From: a virus
Lineage: Duplodnaviria > Caudoviricetes
IMG/VR virus record: IMGVR_UViG_3300033498_000048
Coordinates: 241,783 to 305,782 of that record
DNA length: 64,000 nt
Reading direction: 5' to 3' (one strand)
This document shows, piece after piece, positions 1,060 to 55,075 of this stretch. A program made the translations under genes and the position numbers. Every line of letters begins with the position of its first letter. Positions within the stretch are counted from its first letter, which is position 1. Under the pieces are notes generated by a model. The model saw only the letters and a list, made by a program, of their open reading frames with translations. It searched no databases and was not told where the DNA came from.

Positions 1060-1098
1060 AGCATTTTTTATTGAAGTTTAACATAAAGGAAATGTATC

Positions 1099-1263
1099 GT
1101 GGAAACATTTGAATATGTTGAAGGCTTTTTAGCAGCTAAAAATGATTTAATGTATGGTAGCAACCCATATCAAGACCCCGTAAAAAAATTGTCGTGGTCT
1201 AAAGGTCATAACGACTTTAGAGTAAAACAAAAAACAACAAAGTCGAAGAAAATAGCAAAATAA
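1099..1263 (+). CDS. Small protein resembling ribosome modulation factor (RMF-like)
   Basis: Not in track; GTG start with AAAGGA RBS; VETFEYVEGFLAAKNDLMYGSNPYQDPVKKLSWSKGHNDFRVKQK..., matching the RMF-like G-F-x-A...NPY...W-x-x-G pattern. Confidence 0.45.
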   Translation: METFEYVEGFLAAKNDLMYGSNPYQDPVKKLSWSKGHNDFRVKQKTTKSKKIAK

Positions 1264-1341
1264 GCAAACTAGTGATAGGTTTGCTTATTTGAATGGAAAT
1301 TGTATTCTGTCTAATACCAATCAAGCACACATAGCTCAAAA

Positions 1342-1776
1342 TTAAGGGCAAACAGCTCTCAGGATTCTCATTTGACCCGCAAGAATCTTGGGCGCACCAT
1401 CTCCATTGGAAACTGTTTTTGAAGTTGTAAGAAATGAAATATAATACAGATTTCCTGCTGTTGCTGCATCGTGTAACCCAGCCCCGACAATAGTTCCCCA
1501 ATTTGCGGAAGGAACACCGAAAACCAATTCTTGTAGGTTGCTATATTCAAGGTTAGCTCCAGATGGACCCTGCCAACCATTTGATGCTAATATTTGAACC
1601 CTAGCATAGTTAGTTCCAACAGTTGATACTTCAACTCCTCCAGTACCATCAAGTGACGGAGTTGAGGTGAATAGTGAAACCCACAACGATGTTGGAGGAG
1701 TGAATACGGGGGTATTCTTTAATAAGTAGTCCATAGACTTCTGATAATAAAAATTTGATGTGGTACTAGATGGCAT
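1342..1776 (-). CDS. Virion / tail-associated structural protein
   Basis: LWVSLFTSTP...GTGGVEVS...YARV...SN...F...ANWGTIVGAGLHDAATAGNL motif typical of phage tail-associated proteins; late promoter upstream. Confidence 0.65.
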   Translation of the reverse strand: MPSSTTSNFYYQKSMDYLLKNTPVFTPPTSLWVSLFTSTPSLDGTGGVEVSTVGTNYARVQILASNGWQGPSGANLEYSNLQELVFGVPSANWGTIVGAGLHDAATAGNLYYISFLTTSKTVSNGDGAPKILAGQMRILRAVCP

Positions 1777-6312: not shown

Positions 6313-6531
6313 TTATCCAGTAACTAACCTTGACATATCAGAAACTATTGCGTTATTGCGAATAAAATCAATAACATTGAATCTTTCGTTTGTGTCGTTA
6401 AATTCCAATGCGTCTTTACGATTAAAAGTCCAGTAAACCTTTAAACATACAATACTTTTGACATATTTATAAACAGCACCACCAATTCCATGCTCGTCTT
6501 TCTCCAACACAGCATAACCTATAATTGCCAT
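6313..6531 (-). CDS. Hypothetical protein
   Basis: 72 aa, AAGGTG RBS. Confidence 0.5.
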   Translation of the reverse strand: MAIIGYAVLEKDEHGIGGAVYKYVKSIVCLKVYWTFNRKDALEFNDTNERFNVIDFIRNNAIVSDMSRLVTG

Positions 6532-6620: not shown

Positions 6621-6628
6621 TATAAATA
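6621..6628 (+). promoter_or_regulatory. T4 late promoter TATAAATA heading the 6665-8465 operon
   Basis: Exact match in divergent intergenic gap. Confidence 0.75.
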
Positions 6629-6664
6629 AATGTATCAATATGATTATTTTAAGGGGAACTACAA

Positions 6665-6838
6665 ATGGAAGGACAATGGCTTGGAGGTAAGGGTTCAACA
6701 ACTAGACCTATGCAAGTAAACCGACAACAGTTTGAAGATAACTGGAACAAGATTTTCAACAAGAAACTGGATAATGCGAATAAATTAATTCCAGTAAATG
6801 AAACCATAGTGGAGATTGTAACAAATGACACAGTATAA
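6665..6838 (+). CDS. Small conserved-looking phage protein
   Basis: Not in track; MEGQWLGGKGSTTRPMQVNRQQFEDNWNKIF..., 57 aa, AAGGGG RBS. Confidence 0.55.
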   Translation: MEGQWLGGKGSTTRPMQVNRQQFEDNWNKIFNKKLDNANKLIPVNETIVEIVTNDTV

Positions 6839-7076
6839 AACATTTAAATCCTTTTGTGAGTCTGTAACAGCGTTGCCTATCTATTTTCTATGTGAAAAGT
6901 GTAAAGAATCAGGTATTCAGGAGTCTGATGAATTTGATATGGAGACTAAAACCTCTAGGCAAGAATATATTACAAAGGGACAAGATAAAATATTTTTAAA
7001 GAAAGTTTGTTATGAATGCAAATCTGAAAGTGGTGTAGACGAGAATTATTTAAAAGGGATACAATATAGTGGTTAA
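6825..7076 (+). CDS. Zinc-ribbon-like protein with capsid-targeting-like leader
   Basis: N-term YKTFKSFCE; CEKC...CYEC pairs. Confidence 0.55.
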   Translation: MTQYKTFKSFCESVTALPIYFLCEKCKESGIQESDEFDMETKTSRQEYITKGQDKIFLKKVCYECKSESGVDENYLKGIQYSG

Positions 7077-7671
7077 TGTTAAAAACATTAGGGTAAAATC
7101 ATTTAATGAATATTTAATGGAAAACAGTCCAATAATTAGAACTGAGTTAGACAAAGAAATACATTCTAACACAGCAACAAGCCAATTAAATGATATTCCA
7201 ATTCCATCAATGAAAGATGCAAAAAGTGGAGATTATAAAAAAAGCAGAATTAAAATAAATGGACTAATCATTGATATTGAAAATCCGTATGGTTCAGTTA
7301 GAAAAGGCATTAGCTCAAATGGCGAATCGTGGGAAATTACGTTATCAGATAATTATGGTGAAATTAAGGGGTATGATGCTGCTGATGGAGATTATTTAGA
7401 TATTTTCATTCGTCCACATATGACACAAAAACAAGCAGATAATTTAAATGTCATTTATGTGATAGACCAATTGGATCCAACTACACATGGATTTGATGAA
7501 CATAAAGTCGTATTTGGGTATGAAACAATCGAGGAATCTAAACGTGCATATCTAGCCAATTATAAATCAAATTGGACTGGATTAGGATATATCACTCCAT
7601 TAACTATGACGATGTTTAAATATTGGATTAAAAATGAAGACTTAACACAACCATTAGTTTGGGGTAAATAA
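7069..7671 (+). CDS. Inorganic pyrophosphatase-like (InPase) domain protein, putative internal virion protein
   Basis: IDIENPYGSVRKG...W...NYGEIKG..AADGDYLDIF...VIDQ...FDEHKVVFGY...AYLANY is the polyvalent-protein InPase pattern; KSFNEYLME leader. Confidence 0.8.
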   Translation: MVNVKNIRVKSFNEYLMENSPIIRTELDKEIHSNTATSQLNDIPIPSMKDAKSGDYKKSRIKINGLIIDIENPYGSVRKGISSNGESWEITLSDNYGEIKGYDAADGDYLDIFIRPHMTQKQADNLNVIYVIDQLDPTTHGFDEHKVVFGYETIEESKRAYLANYKSNWTGLGYITPLTMTMFKYWIKNEDLTQPLVWGK

Positions 7672-8052
7672 ATGTTTAAATCATTCAATGACTTCATACG
7701 ATTAGAAGATACGAGCTTTCATTCAATAATGGCAAGGAACATAAAACCCACCAAACAAAAAACAGTTGATTTTGATGATATTAGCACTGGTTCAACCGTT
7801 AGATTAGTTGATATTGGAAATTACTTTTTATTAACTGGATTAGAAACACCTCCAGAAAATAGGGGTAAAGGTGGTGCTAAAAAAGTTATGCAACAGGCAA
7901 TTCAATATGCGATTGATAACGAAAAGAACATAGAATTATCGGTTATTCCTGACGATGATACAGACACTGAAACCTTAATAAAATTGTATTCTAGTTTTGG
8001 ATTTAGAAAAACAGGACAACCACATAACCATATGCGTTATATTACAATATGA
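7672..8052 (+). CDS. GNAT acetyltransferase, putative internal virion protein
   Basis: PPENRGKGGAKKVMQQAI (acetyl-CoA motif A), LIKLYSSFGF; MFKSFNDFIRLE leader. Confidence 0.8.
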   Translation: MFKSFNDFIRLEDTSFHSIMARNIKPTKQKTVDFDDISTGSTVRLVDIGNYFLLTGLETPPENRGKGGAKKVMQQAIQYAIDNEKNIELSVIPDDDTDTETLIKLYSSFGFRKTGQPHNHMRYITI

Positions 8053-8465
8053 AATCATTTAAAGAATATACAAACAATCCGATATTATATCACGGAACAA
8101 CATCAAACTTCGATTTTGATAAAGGTTTAATGGCAGGTGGAAATAAACAAACAACGTCCAACTTTAATGCCAGTAATGGTGAAATTTGGCTAACTTCAAA
8201 TAGGGAAGTTGCGTTTGAGTATGCTATGATTGCATGGAAAACACTACAAAACTTTTCATTAACGCCGATTTTGATACAAGTTGATATTGATGTTAGCTTA
8301 TCAGCAGACCAACCTATAGAACATGACCAAGTAGCGTTTTGTTTTGAATTAGATGTTATTCCAAAAAGTAAACTAAAGATGGTAAAGTTGACTCAAGCAG
8401 AATTAGCTAATTTCAAAAAACGATATGACCGAGAACTTAAAAATGGAAAATCAAAATTCAATTGA
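8049..8465 (+). CDS. ADP-ribosyltransferase-fold protein, putative internal virion protein
   Basis: ILYHGT...IWLTSNREVAFEYA pattern of ART-fold enzymes; MKSFKEY leader. Confidence 0.6.
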   Translation: MKSFKEYTNNPILYHGTTSNFDFDKGLMAGGNKQTTSNFNASNGEIWLTSNREVAFEYAMIAWKTLQNFSLTPILIQVDIDVSLSADQPIEHDQVAFCFELDVIPKSKLKMVKLTQAELANFKKRYDRELKNGKSKFN

Positions 8466-8520
8466 TTTTCGTATGGTGTTTGTGTTATAGTACATAAAAC
8501 ATCATACTAATCACAACATT

Positions 8521-8754
8521 ATGAAATCAAAACTAACCCAAGCTAAAGAATTATTTGACACAGGAAATTTGAATGGATGTTTAAAGATAGTTAAGACTTT
8601 TAGGTTAAGTTTAACTAAAGATGATTTGAAGGTGGTTTCCAGAACATATGAAATGCTGACAGGAAACCACAATTTTTACAATTCATTGGGCTTTGATGTG
8701 GACACTGAATTAGCTAAAGCTAACCAAATTTTGACCACAGTATTTAAATTGTGA
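8521..8754 (+). CDS. Hypothetical protein
   Basis: 77 aa downstream of TTGATT-N18-TATAGT promoter-like element. Confidence 0.55.
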   Translation: MKSKLTQAKELFDTGNLNGCLKIVKTFRLSLTKDDLKVVSRTYEMLTGNHNFYNSLGFDVDTELAKANQILTTVFKL

Positions 8755-37668: not shown

Positions 37669-37742
37669 CATCTTATGTCCAGTGTGTTATATTAAGTTTA
37701 GTATAAATACAAGAAATCAAATAACACACTGGACATAAGATG
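37669..37742 (+). promoter_or_regulatory. 22-bp perfect inverted repeat sequestering RBS/ATG with late promoter in the loop
   Basis: catcttatgtccagtgtgttat (37669-37690) / ataacacactggacataagatg (37721-37742); TATAAATA at 37702-37709. Confidence 0.8.
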
Positions 37743-38543
37743 GCAAAATTAATAAACGACAAGTATTACACTCCATTAGAATTGGCTCAATATTGTATAG
37801 ATAAAACGCATCAAATTATAGGGAATAAAAATATCACTGAATATATTGAACCATCAGCTGGAAATGGGTCATTTAGTTTATTATTACCTGATTGTATTGC
37901 ATTTGATATTGAACCTGAGCATCCATCAATTATCAAACAAGACTTTTTAATGATTGATATACCACATAAATCTGGACGATGTGTTATTGGGAATCCTCCA
38001 TTTGGAAAAAACAATTTATTATATAGGAGGTTTTGTGATAAAAGCTTTAATATTGCTGATTATGTTGCTTACATTTTACCTATCAGTCAATATAATAACA
38101 GAAATCTAATTTACAAATTTGATTTAATTTATAGTGAAAAGCTTAATCAGGTGTTGTTTAGTTCGGCTAAACAAGTTCCAGTTTGTTTTAACATTTATAA
38201 AAGACCATTAAGTGGAATTTACAATAAACGTCCTAAATTATACCACAAATATATTAAGTTTATATATAAAACTAGGCACTCGAACGAAATCATCAATGAT
38301 TTTGATGTGATAATATGTGCATGGGGGAGTAATGTTGGTAAACCAATAACAGATTTAAATGCTCCTAGATGGACATCAAGTATGTACATTAAATTTATTG
38401 ATGGACTAGATACTTCAATTAAAAGCAAACTAATAGAATCAATATCAAATGTTGATTGGAAACTCAAATATAGTATGCCTAGAAATGGGTCAATATCATA
38501 TTGGCATATTTATAATTATCTAAATGAAATTGTTAAGGAGTAA
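37740..38543 (+). CDS. N6-adenine DNA methyltransferase
   Basis: DKYYTP, IEPSAGNGSF (motif I), VIGNPPFG (motif IV). Confidence 0.85.
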   Translation: MAKLINDKYYTPLELAQYCIDKTHQIIGNKNITEYIEPSAGNGSFSLLLPDCIAFDIEPEHPSIIKQDFLMIDIPHKSGRCVIGNPPFGKNNLLYRRFCDKSFNIADYVAYILPISQYNNRNLIYKFDLIYSEKLNQVLFSSAKQVPVCFNIYKRPLSGIYNKRPKLYHKYIKFIYKTRHSNEIINDFDVIICAWGSNVGKPITDLNAPRWTSSMYIKFIDGLDTSIKSKLIESISNVDWKLKYSMPRNGSISYWHIYNYLNEIVKE

Positions 38544-39593: not shown

Positions 39594-40277
39594 TCAACCA
39601 ACACCAATAAGGTTTTGAACTGGGTCAATGATTACTAATTCCTTTGTGCTTGGACGTATCATAAAATTATCACTATGTAAATCACTCATAAAGTTTTTAA
39701 ACAAAGGCTCGATTAATCGCAAAGCTTTTATTAAATTATCATCTGTAATTCTGGATTTAAGTTTCAAACGTCTAGTTGGGTTTGCAAATTGTTGTCTAAT
39801 ATCAAGATACAAGTCATTTAAGTTTCTGTAGCTATTAAATGGGTCAAAAAAACCCAATGATTTAAACATATTCCATACAAATTTAGCATCTTCATGGAAT
39901 AACGGCATTAAACGTTCTACTACCATGACCAGCATATATTTTTCTTGTGTTGGTTGTATCAATGTTCTATATTTTAAAAAGTCAATATCATCTTCTGTTA
40001 ATTCTGAATTGTCATACATCTTATAGGTATAAACTTTTGGAAAATATGGATTATTTTCGTGATTAACACACAATCTTAAAAATTGAACAGAAGCATCATT
40101 CTCACCTGTTACATTAACAACCTTTATAATCTTGTTAGCATCTTTAGTGTGAGCATATACCAAGGCTTGAACTCCAGACCCTAATAGCTTTTTATCTTTC
40201 ATTATACCATTGAATTTTGTATCAGATTTAGGGAGTTGTAATTTAACTTCCCTAATATAGTTTTGATAGGACAACAT
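39594..40277 (-). CDS. Ser/Thr-type protein kinase, putative internal virion protein
   Basis: LLGSGVQALVY (Gly loop), IIKV, PYFPKVY, VVERL, DLHSDNFM, VIIDP; MLSYQNYIRE leader; CATAAATA at 40375-40382 (minus). Confidence 0.85.
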   Translation of the reverse strand: MLSYQNYIREVKLQLPKSDTKFNGIMKDKKLLGSGVQALVYAHTKDANKIIKVVNVTGENDASVQFLRLCVNHENNPYFPKVYTYKMYDNSELTEDDIDFLKYRTLIQPTQEKYMLVMVVERLMPLFHEDAKFVWNMFKSLGFFDPFNSYRNLNDLYLDIRQQFANPTRRLKLKSRITDDNLIKALRLIEPLFKNFMSDLHSDNFMIRPSTKELVIIDPVQNLIGVG

Positions 40278-53389: not shown

Positions 53390-53573
53390 ATGATTCCAAT
53401 GTTTTTAAGTATTCAGTAGCAAACTGAATCTGCTCATAGCAATATTCAATGTATGCTTCAATTGCTTGTTGACTAGCCGATTCATTAAACTCTGTAAAGT
53501 CGCCAAACCCATCTCCTACAAATAGAATACCATTTTCGCTTTTTTGTATTGAGTTAATCCAATTGGTTATCAT
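53376..53573 (-). CDS. Hypothetical acidic protein
   Basis: 65 aa, coupled to neighbours. Confidence 0.5.
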   Translation of the reverse strand: MITNWINSIQKSENGILFVGDGFGDFTEFNESASQQAIEAYIEYCYEQIQFATEYLKTLESYDKT

Positions 53574-55075
53574 ATAATGTCCCTCGATAGTTTTAATAAA
53601 GTATCATTAATTGGTTGTGTGTCGTCTGGGAGCCAGTTTCTTATGCGACCAACTGCGATATTGAGTTTTTGTAACGTGTTAATGTCCTTAAAATACAAAT
53701 GAATTGTACCCTTCATGTATATTTTGACTGTAAAATGTTTTGATTCCATTTTTATGCCAGCAAAAAAGTTATTAGCTTTAATCGAATTTACAATTCCATT
53801 AGTTAAATCTGGAATATTGCCTAGCAATCTGTCTAGTACCATATCAACATCATTGAGTGTGGATTCCCCGTGATAATCAAAATCTAATTTGTTATTATAA
53901 CTCAATTTTACAATATTTGGTAATACAACTCGCCTTTTCGTGAATATTGGTTTATCGGTAGTTTTATTCCATCCAATTTCACCAACAACTGTTTTAGTAT
54001 TACTTTTCCAACCTTCATAATGATTTCTATTATCTGGATAATACTTTGTGAACGTATCAAATATATCCAATAACGTGTGATTAAAAATTGCAATTGAATT
54101 ATCAAGTAATTCTTGTAAGAAGTACCTAATATTGTGTTCTGTAAATTCAAGTTTTGATATGTTGGTTCGTTTCTTTTCAAACTCACTCCTAACTGCACCA
54201 GTCATCAATTTTGAAAACTCTGAAACAGTCCACACGCCACCCCATGCAGAATCACGCAACGAGTCTAACTCGCTATTCAATTCTCGTTTAATATCATATT
54301 GTATTTCATATGCTGGAGATTTATATTGCGATGTTATCATTAAAGATTTGTAATATGTTGCTTTAGCTTTAGCAATACAAGCTTCCCTAGCCGAATTGAC
54401 TGCTAAGTTGTAATAGTTGACTAATTCAGATATTCTTGATTGTTTTATTGCTAATTGGTTTTGTAAGCTTGAATCCATTGCAGAATATTCAGGCTTAGAT
54501 TCTGATAATGAACTCAAATCAAAGAAGTCTTCAGCATAATTAGCAACTTTAACTAAATGTATTAACACAACTTCAACATCTGTAGAACGTTCACTATCGG
54601 TAAACGCATTTTCAATGTATTCAATTGTGTTTGTTGGATTAGATTCAATGATTGAAATTAATAACTTCCGTTCTTTTGAATATGGGTTTCGTATAGATTC
54701 CGCGTTTAATAATGCAATGACTTGTCCAGAATAAATCAAATTATACGCTCGCAATACATGATTAACCCCAACACTAAATGGAGGATTCATAACAATACAA
54801 TCATATAAAGTTGGACTCGAAAAATTCATAAAATCAAAACCAACGACATTACAACCCATTCCCCTTAATGAGTTTTGTAATACTGGTTCAATTTCTATAC
54901 AATCTATTGTTATTGTGTAATTGTTATATCTTTTAAATTCCTTTATTGCTTTAACAAGATTACCTGACCCAGCACTTGGTTCCAATATCGTTTTAGACTG
55001 TGGTTGTATTAGTTTAGCCATCTTTGTAGCTAACCAATCTGGAGTTGGGTAAAATTCAGTATCATTAATCGACAT
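53570..55075 (-). CDS. Adenine methyltransferase with DUF4942-like C-terminal domain
   Basis: EFYPTP, ILEPSAGSG, IVMNPPF, ALLNAESIRNP; C-term HYEGWKSN, YMKGTIHLYF. Confidence 0.85.
   Translation of the reverse strand: MSINDTEFYPTPDWLATKMAKLIQPQSKTILEPSAGSGNLVKAIKEFKRYNNYTITIDCIEIEPVLQNSLRGMGCNVVGFDFMNFSSPTLYDCIVMNPPFSVGVNHVLRAYNLIYSGQVIALLNAESIRNPYSKERKLLISIIESNPTNTIEYIENAFTDSERSTDVEVVLIHLVKVANYAEDFFDLSSLSESKPEYSAMDSSLQNQLAIKQSRISELVNYYNLAVNSAREACIAKAKATYYKSLMITSQYKSPAYEIQYDIKRELNSELDSLRDSAWGGVWTVSEFSKLMTGAVRSEFEKKRTNISKLEFTEHNIRYFLQELLDNSIAIFNHTLLDIFDTFTKYYPDNRNHYEGWKSNTKTVVGEIGWNKTTDKPIFTKRRVVLPNIVKLSYNNKLDFDYHGESTLNDVDMVLDRLLGNIPDLTNGIVNSIKANNFFAGIKMESKHFTVKIYMKGTIHLYFKDINTLQKLNIAVGRIRNWLPDDTQPINDTLLKLSRDII

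Follow-up and report, generated by a model that had tools for sequence, protein, structure and literature searches.

What is known of the targeting peptide of bacteriophage T4 comes mostly from three small basic proteins and engineered fusions. Its capsid targeting sequence (CTS) reads MKTYQEFIAE (PMC8442874); residues 4 and 7 are the main determinants of targeting and residues 8 and 10 of processing, and the T4 protease gp21 cleaves after L/I-x-E, with an Asp at CTS position 10 stopping cleavage, not targeting (PMC9026906). Head packaging has been predicted for the InPase, GNAT and ADP-ribosyltransferase (ART) domain classes (Iyer et al. 2017, PMC5512222; Iyer et al. 2022), and the InPase of polyvalent proteins has four conserved acidic metal-binding residues (Iyer et al. 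2017, PMC5512222). Here we describe an operon of five open reading frames (ORFs) in which a CTS-like leader is joined to these same domain classes. The operon occupies positions 6621-8465 of a 64,000-nucleotide stretch of viral DNA (the window), which corresponds to positions 241,783 to 305,782 of IMG/VR record IMGVR_UViG_3300033498_000048. Given the analogy with T4 and the comparative context, we favor with moderate confidence the reading that the operon enzymes are loaded into the head of the phage and are injected with the DNA. The operon consists of the following features.

6621-6628, + strand: late promoter box TATAAATA (as read below), 36 nucleotides upstream of the ORF1 ATG.
6665-6838, + strand: ORF1, 57 amino acids, with a strong ribosome-binding site (AAGGGGA); leader absent, no family found.
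6825-7076, + strand: ORF2, 83 amino acids, overlapping ORF1 by 14 nucleotides; leader MTQYKTFKSFCE and two CxxC knuckles, putatively zinc-binding.
7069-7671, + strand: ORF3, 200 amino acids, with a GTG start after AAAGGGA and an 8-nucleotide overlap with ORF2; a stand-alone InPase.
7672-8052, + strand: ORF4, 126 amino acids, whose ATG immediately follows the ORF3 stop; leader MFKSFNDFIRLE, a minimal GNAT acetyltransferase.
8049-8465, + strand: ORF5, 138 amino acids, in ATGA overlap with ORF4; a probable minimal ADP-ribosyltransferase.

The five + strand ORFs (6665-8465) overlap or abut one another behind a single TATAAATA box, as an earlier sequence-only reading of this DNA had described. Its claim that four of the five carry a targeting-like leader is also correct. 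ORFs 2-5 share the N-terminal pattern K-[ST]-F-x-x-[FYS], which closely matches the T4 CTS. The leader lies at residues 5-12 of ORF2 (KTFKSFCE), has its core at K10-E18 of ORF3 (KSFNEYLME, within the N-terminus ...VKSFNEYLME), and reads MKSFKEYTNN in ORF5. The aromatic pair found at positions 4 and 7 of the T4 sequence is present in all four proteins, as F-K-S-F in ORF2, F-N-E-Y in ORF3, F-N-D-F in ORF4 and F-K-E-Y in ORF5. When K-S-F-N-E-Y-L-M-E of ORF3 is set against K-T-Y-Q-E-F-I-A-E of T4, every position is identical or similar, and the L-M-E of ORF3 matches the L/I-x-E cleavage site.

The leader is also unevenly distributed in the genome as a whole. In 467 crude genes there are 10 instances of the pattern K[ST][FY]x[EQDS][FY], 8 of which fall within the first 13 residues, a zone that accounts for 6.8% of all residues (binomial P ~2e-8); a second pattern, [FY]xx[FY][LIVF]x(1,2)E, has 14 of its 44 occurrences in this N-terminal zone (P ~8e-7). 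Approximately 18 genes bear the leader, at least 12 of them in units headed by TATAAATA; the set encodes, among others, an Acb1-like 2H phosphodiesterase, a pair of T7 gp0.7-like kinases, and one protein each of the P-loop and DUF5856 types. Orthologues of the operon proteins from other samples keep the leader, yet it diverges faster than the cargo. InPase orthologues begin with MKQTFKEYFDE and MNQTFEEYLAE, the GNAT of P0011 is preceded by KTFKEFINE, the ART-like P0002 begins with MMKFTQFLSE, and the leader ends found among orthologues are L-A-E, F-D-E, V-S-E, I-N-E and L-S-E. In P0002, FLSE stands immediately ahead of PILYHGT, and the cargo boundary is kept. Since the pattern is conserved on unrelated cargo, the leader appears to behave as a signal.

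Several tagged proteins are encoded outside the operon. Genome positions 1068-1688 (+), outside the window, encode a 206-amino-acid protein with the leader MFKTFKSFIME, 22 nucleotides behind a TATAAATA box. It scores 29 bits with anti-CBASS Acb1 (PF23474; cut-off 27), matches 2'-5' RNA ligase/2H phosphoesterase profiles as well, and is a candidate for a pre-packaged degrader of cyclic-nucleotide signals. The gene that follows it (genome positions 1698-2195) starts with MLSYTEFILE. Two paralogous proteins of ~227 amino acids, encoded at 39594-40277 (-) of the window and at genome positions 192615-193301 (-), carry the leaders MLSYQNYIRE and MLTFNTFLKE and match, with E 3e-12 and 5e-8, phrog_15752, a protein kinase of T7 gp0.7 type; kinases too belong to the polyvalent domain classes. 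Internal leaders were observed in two relatives from ENA metagenomes. P0005 (324 amino acids) has a Cys-rich N-terminal part of ~130 residues, then the internal leader MKIKTFKSFVSE, then an InPase. P0011 (207 amino acids) consists of a homologue of the 77-amino-acid protein encoded at 8521-8754 of the window, six residues, LKTFKEFINE and a GNAT. Either these are true fusions in which the tag is a cleavable linker, or gene calling has run over alternative starts. The N-terminal part of P0005 was considered as an ORF2 homologue and rejected, as the leader alone aligns.

The record comprises 305,782 base pairs with direct terminal repeats and has a completeness rating of 100%; the window, with a G+C content of ~31%, is its final 64 kb. 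Its gp23-like capsid protein shares 59-62% identity with gp23-type proteins from T4-like phages (phrog_138, E 2.5e-140), and a gp21-family prohead protease is encoded as well (PF03420, Peptidase_S77, E 4.9e-39). The source genome is that of a complete T4-type jumbo phage, uncultured. In the propeptide region of the capsid protein, F-L-N-E precedes the conserved core, at a place equivalent to the F-L-T-E after which T4 gp23 is cut. A T4-like head block at genome positions 198246-201689 (-) contains, in order, the portal C-terminus, a 269-amino-acid protein, the gp21-type protease, a 344-amino-acid protein and the capsid gene. The 269-amino-acid protein has the N-terminus MLLQFKDYV and is preceded by a TATAAATA box, and the 344-amino-acid protein, between protease and capsid gene, is an acidic coiled coil and a scaffold candidate. 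The protease gene lies at genome positions 199746-200189.

The TATAAATA box is not enriched by number in the window (15 copies against 19.2 expected). Its placement is another matter: of 45 copies genome-wide, 24 stand between genes at 11-52 nucleotides ahead of a gene on their own strand, whereas permuted 8-mers of equal composition are intergenic in 21% of cases (P ~2e-6). Among the products encoded behind these boxes are the major head protein of gp23 type, another head protein, gp48-/gp53-like baseplate proteins, a holin, baseplate-wedge-like proteins and a tail-fibre-like protein. Given this placement before structural genes in a genome whose capsid protein is T4-like, a T4-type late promoter is a reasonable reading of TATAAATA. 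The box and its genome-wide tie to structural genes predict that the operon is transcribed late, which upholds the earlier description of a late operon as a prediction.

ORF3 is certainly an InPase by its profile match. It hits Pfam family PF18823, a type I pyrophosphatase-like domain known from polyvalent proteins, with 143.4 bits (cut-off 26.8; E 5.2e-42) over profile positions 3-135 of 135, and the domain, at residues 50-188, was recovered with 144.1 bits by a six-frame search of the genome. The call made from sequence inspection was therefore right. Acidic residues E71, D106, D108, D143 and E144 are invariant across six homologues, all of which have a D-x-D-x-x-D string, and the orthologues P0006 and P0007 (60-67% identity) retain the leader.

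Elsewhere this domain is habitually part of something larger. At 79 of the 80 best viral loci in IMG/VR the InPase lies within ORFs of 322 to more than 3,600 amino acids (median ~2,800), and the giant ORFs that were scanned also contain LPD38, LPD1, LPD3, LPD5 and Kinase-PolyVal domains. The sole stand-alone-sized InPase among the 80 (L015, of high G+C) is without a T4-like leader. ART-PolyVal occurs in ORFs of 2,055-6,221 amino acids in 9 of 50 InPase records. One polyvalent ORF has InPase and ART 290 residues apart on the same chain, in the InPase-to-ART order of the operon; a GNAT between them was looked for in this ORF and none was found. In the Pseudomonas phage Pa193 the domain forms residues 633-762 of the portal, in its C-terminal part (PDB 9B41), and the portal type accounts for 293 Pseudomonas phage matches. 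A different arrangement was observed in Vibrio phage 150E35-1 (161 kb), where the gene of a free-standing 282-amino-acid InPase protein (OX241562.1, 8951-9799) lies three genes downstream of that for the major capsid protein; this InPase is unfused, in the head module, and without a T4-like leader.

The identification of ORF4 as a GNAT acetyltransferase is sound on both profile and model matches, and bears out the call made from sequence inspection. Nine GNAT families of Pfam match residues 51-118 with E-values from 1e-4 to 0.05, of which Acetyltransf_1 is marginal (score 20.9 against a cut-off of 20.7), and phrog_1249, an acetyltransferase, matches with E 1.3e-6. Motif A reads R64-G-K-G-G-A69, in line with the acetyl-CoA pattern Q/R-x-x-G-x-G/A, and is Q-G-K-G-G-A in P0011. 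The ESM Atlas model, with a predicted local distance difference test (pLDDT) of 0.73, gives template modeling (TM) scores of 0.65-0.71 (~0.69) to GNAT clusters over residues ~24-126, and the ESM Atlas features (score 0.95, 189 shared) group the protein with small viral GNATs.

Among cultured phages, relatives of ORF4 were found only as segments within giant virion proteins, namely a 2,482-amino-acid structural protein of Tenacibaculum phage Gundel_1, which also has weak GNAT matches in Pfam, and a 3,522-amino-acid N4-type virion RNA polymerase of Stenotrophomonas phage Pokken (29-44% identity, E 6e-5 to 3e-4). Since the InPase is found in giant polyvalent ORFs and portals, and the GNAT in virion proteins, both domains appear to be habitually attached to proteins that travel in the capsid, and here a T4-type tag would replace covalent fusion. 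The earlier description of the operon as split polyvalent-protein domains is thus upheld as to the link with polyvalent proteins, both for the InPase and for the ORF4-like GNAT, but a literal split of one ancestor is not supported. Each domain of the operon is its own ORF with its own start and stop, which places it outside the definition of polyvalent proteins (2-15 effector domains per polypeptide).

ORF5, previously called an ART, likely has the ART fold, and the call stands in part. Its core begins at P11 (PILYHGT), and the segments Y14-H15-G16-T17 and W47-L-T-S50...A55-F-E-Y-A59 match invariant or near-invariant columns of five ART-PolyVal domains taken from viral polyvalent ORFs. An hhalign comparison with these five domains gave a probability of 62% (E 7.6e-5) over 36 columns that span the Y-H-G-T and W-x-[ST]...A-x-E-[FY]-A motifs. 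In the ESM Atlas, ORF5 has a feature score of 0.94 and TM scores of 0.53-0.62 to Arr, DUF3990 and Tpt1 clusters, all of the ART clan, and Arr was found by features too.

Other results would fit an unrelated small alpha/beta protein, in which case the polyvalent set would be reduced to InPase and GNAT. The Pfam match to ART-PolyVal (PF18760) scores 17.9 bits, below the cut-off of 31.2 (E 0.0056; profile positions 8-62 of 140), and 17.1 bits in the genome search. AlphaFold2 models made from the single sequence (pLDDT 43) and from a seven-row alignment that included ART-PolyVal domains (pLDDT 53) were both unusable, and a Foldseek search with the latter returned noise only. No third catalytic residue, an E, D or Q on the last core strand, could be pinpointed; D79, D81 and E100 come into question, and the C-terminal half aligned unreliably. 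Among 1.8 billion representatives there was a single true homologue, P0002 (69% identical); a second HMMER match, a PA14 repeat protein, was rejected because it matched through repeats. Nothing was found by pattern search of IMG/VR, by sequence searches of the PDB or by tblastn against cultured phages. We nevertheless regard the unrelated protein as rather unlikely, since Y-H-G-T and G-E-I-W-L-T-S-x-x-x-V-A-x-E-Y-A align with the two N-terminal motifs of ART-PolyVal, and the ESM Atlas, which is independent of our alignments, returns three ART-clan families by structure and Arr by features.

The two remaining proteins are small. ORF1 had no match in Pfam, PHROGs or NCBIfam and none by tblastn in cultured phages; the NCBIfam search added nothing for the operon. 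ORF2 has two copies of a knuckle [LV]-C-x-x-C-K-(x)-E-S-G (C22/C25 and C62/C65) and is probably a small zinc-binding protein. Its former label of Zn-ribbon remains plausible as far as a four-Cys metal-binding protein goes, but the profile matches are all sub-threshold (BSD2_CRD, E 0.0017; phrog_9494, E 0.0026).

The boundaries of the operon are marked by three neighboring features.

6313-6531, - strand: upstream neighbor gene, divergent from the operon.
8462-8491, + strand: sigma-70-like promoter TTGATT-18-TATAGT with an extended -10 TG, a consensus match only, overlapping the ORF5 stop at the downstream boundary.
8521-8754, + strand: phrog_18237 gene, 77 amino acids, basic (isoelectric point, pI, 9.2), behind the sigma-70-like promoter.

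No terminator-like site was found on the + strand within the operon or after it, so late transcripts may run on past ORF5. Since the sigma-70-like promoter lies directly ahead of the phrog_18237 gene, this gene may have early expression as well as late expression through read-through. The operon DNA had no nucleotide similarity match in cultured phages, and two metagenome scans for the contigs of P0002, P0005-P0007 and P0011 found nothing. Elsewhere in the window, the genes at 37740-38543 (+) and 53570-55075 (-) share an N-terminal methyltransferase-like module that also occurs in phage proteins of giant size (phrog_799, 9133, 11358); a TATAAATA box precedes the first, and the product of the second continues into DUF4942 (E 2e-32).

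The operon, its late-type promoter, the InPase, the GNAT and the CTS-like leader are solid elements on which a mechanism can be proposed. The leader would dock each protein onto the scaffolding core of the prohead. A gp21-type protease would then trim the leader after Glu, clearly in ORF3, at variant sites in ORF2 and ORF4, and probably not at all in ORF5. The mature enzymes would remain with the DNA and pass into the host cell on injection. There, the probable ART (with NAD+) and the GNAT (with acetyl-CoA) would modify macromolecules of the host, in the way that RNA polymerase is a target of T4 Alt and phiKMV Rac, and the InPase would hydrolyze pyrophosphate or a nucleotide-derived signal. 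As part of the ~18-gene leader set, the operon would then be a functional counterpart of a polyvalent effector protein, made of individually addressed modules.

Several observations weigh against packaging. The leader ends of ORF4 (I-R-L-E) and ORF2 (F-C-E) are variants of L/I-x-E in a shifted register, that of ORF5 (T-N-N) is without the Glu cleavage site, the ORF3 leader is preceded by nine residues if the GTG start is correct, and ORF1 has no leader. The pI values of ORFs 2-5 (5.14, 5.42, 6.28 and 7.80) are acidic to neutral, unlike those of the basic T4 internal proteins. Selection on translation initiation may partly account for the short, AT-rich codon patterns at the N-termini. Since its leader has the aromatic pair but no Glu, ORF5 may be loaded without cleavage. 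The non-basic proteins, the missing Glu of ORF5 and missing leader of ORF1, and the similar AT-rich codons of the leaders would all suit late cytoplasmic enzymes that are never packaged and act in the producing cell, their shared N-terminus being a feature of translation initiation or of cassette recombination. For instance, the InPase would then draw late synthesis of DNA or RNA forward, while host or phage proteins would be modified late by the GNAT and ART (compare T4 ModA and ModB, which act after injection). We consider such unpackaged enzymes unlikely, because the motif is kept at the protein level on orthologues that are 60-69% identical, with the cargo-proximal boundary included (P0002), and fits the experimentally mapped targeting and processing positions of T4. 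Furthermore, the leader co-occurs with late promoters and a gp21-type protease, and the same domains are covalently joined to virion proteins in other phages.

Packaging need not imply injection. The proteins could be components of the prohead core or of assembly, or enzymes working in the head, that are degraded or retained and do not act on the host. The core proteins of T4 are mostly degraded and expelled (PMC9026906), and the InPase of PB1-like phages is fixed to the portal, a part that is not injected. Transferases that depend on NAD+ or acetyl-CoA have, on the other hand, no obvious substrate in the capsid, T4 Alt and the T4 internal proteins provide a precedent for ejection, and other genes with the leader encode typical host-directed enzymes, such as the Acb1-like 2H phosphodiesterase and the T7 gp0.7-like kinases. 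Such a purely internal role consequently seems to us quite improbable, and delivery of the enzymes into the host remains the reading that we favor.

A broader proposition can be advanced tentatively, as a serious possibility that falls short of the probable. The CTS may be a general address label, through which ~18 separately tagged, ready-made proteins (among them InPase, GNAT, mini-ART, the Acb1-like phosphodiesterase and two kinases) replace one polyvalent protein, while the same peptide between fused modules (P0005, P0011) serves as a cleavable linker, the tagged and fused states being interconvertible. A search of a limited collection of papers found no description of natural sets of CTS-tagged enzymes. 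If the proposition is true, evolution has put the tag to general use in loading cargo, and a simple sequence rule would predict phage genes that act in the first seconds of infection, before phage expression. It would also link the literatures of T4 head assembly and of polyvalent effectors, so far treated separately, and would nominate the InPase, GNAT and mini-ART as pre-made enzymes of host takeover or counter-defense.

A close known parallel is provided by the internal proteins of T4 named IPI, IPII and IPIII (Mullaney and Black 1996, reviewed in PMC9026906 and PMC3012670). In both systems a ~10-residue N-terminal sequence of the type M-K-[TS]-[YF]-x-[EQ]-[FY]-[IL]-x-E is found on otherwise unrelated proteins, with late promoters, a gp21-family protease and diverse, fast-changing cargo. 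However, the operon cargo consists of recognizable enzymes with pI of 5-8, whereas the T4 proteins are small, basic and non-enzymatic. Tagged genes number ~18 here against three in T4, some leaders here have variant or absent cleavage sites, and the present system is known from its genes alone. T4 Alt (PMC9503650, PMC9026906) has the role proposed for ORF5, being a late-made ART that enters the prohead core, is cut by gp21 and is ejected onto host proteins. It differs in being a large protein of the Alt/VIP2 family, of R-S-E type, with N- and C-terminal propeptides of its own. The 138-residue ORF5 is mini-ART-like and of H-Y type, nearest to Arr, DUF3990, Tpt1 and ART-PolyVal, and has no detectable similarity to Alt. 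With Arr (PF12120) and ART-PolyVal (PF18760) it shares a length of ~140 residues, an H-G-T first motif, a predicted resemblance of fold in the ESM Atlas (TM 0.55) and a weak ART-PolyVal profile match, but it has no significant sequence match to Arr and scores below the ART-PolyVal cut-off.

The portal InPase of PB1-like phages (Pa193 gp19, PDB 9B41, PMC11456595; BcepF1, cited in PMC5512222) is homologous to ORF3 (E 1.4e-36) and likewise tied to the inside of the capsid. In Pa193 gp19, however, it is covalently fixed to the portal, leaderless and not free, and residues 529-765 are unresolved in the map. The embedded GNATs of Gundel_1 and Pokken and the Rac protein of phiKMV (PMC7824862) have in common with ORF4 the theme of phage acetyltransferases that target the host at the start of infection; compared with the embedded GNATs, ORF4 is free-standing and CTS-tagged, and the similarity is modest. 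Finally, polyvalent proteins (Iyer et al. 2017, PMC5512222) share with the operon the InPase family PF18823, a predicted delivery with the DNA, and much of a repertoire, with InPase, GNAT and ART in the operon and kinase and 2H phosphoesterase elsewhere in the phage genome. Their domains are delivered by fusion to MuF, portal or LPD modules, whereas here they would be delivered as separate tagged genes, each with an address of the T4 CTS type.

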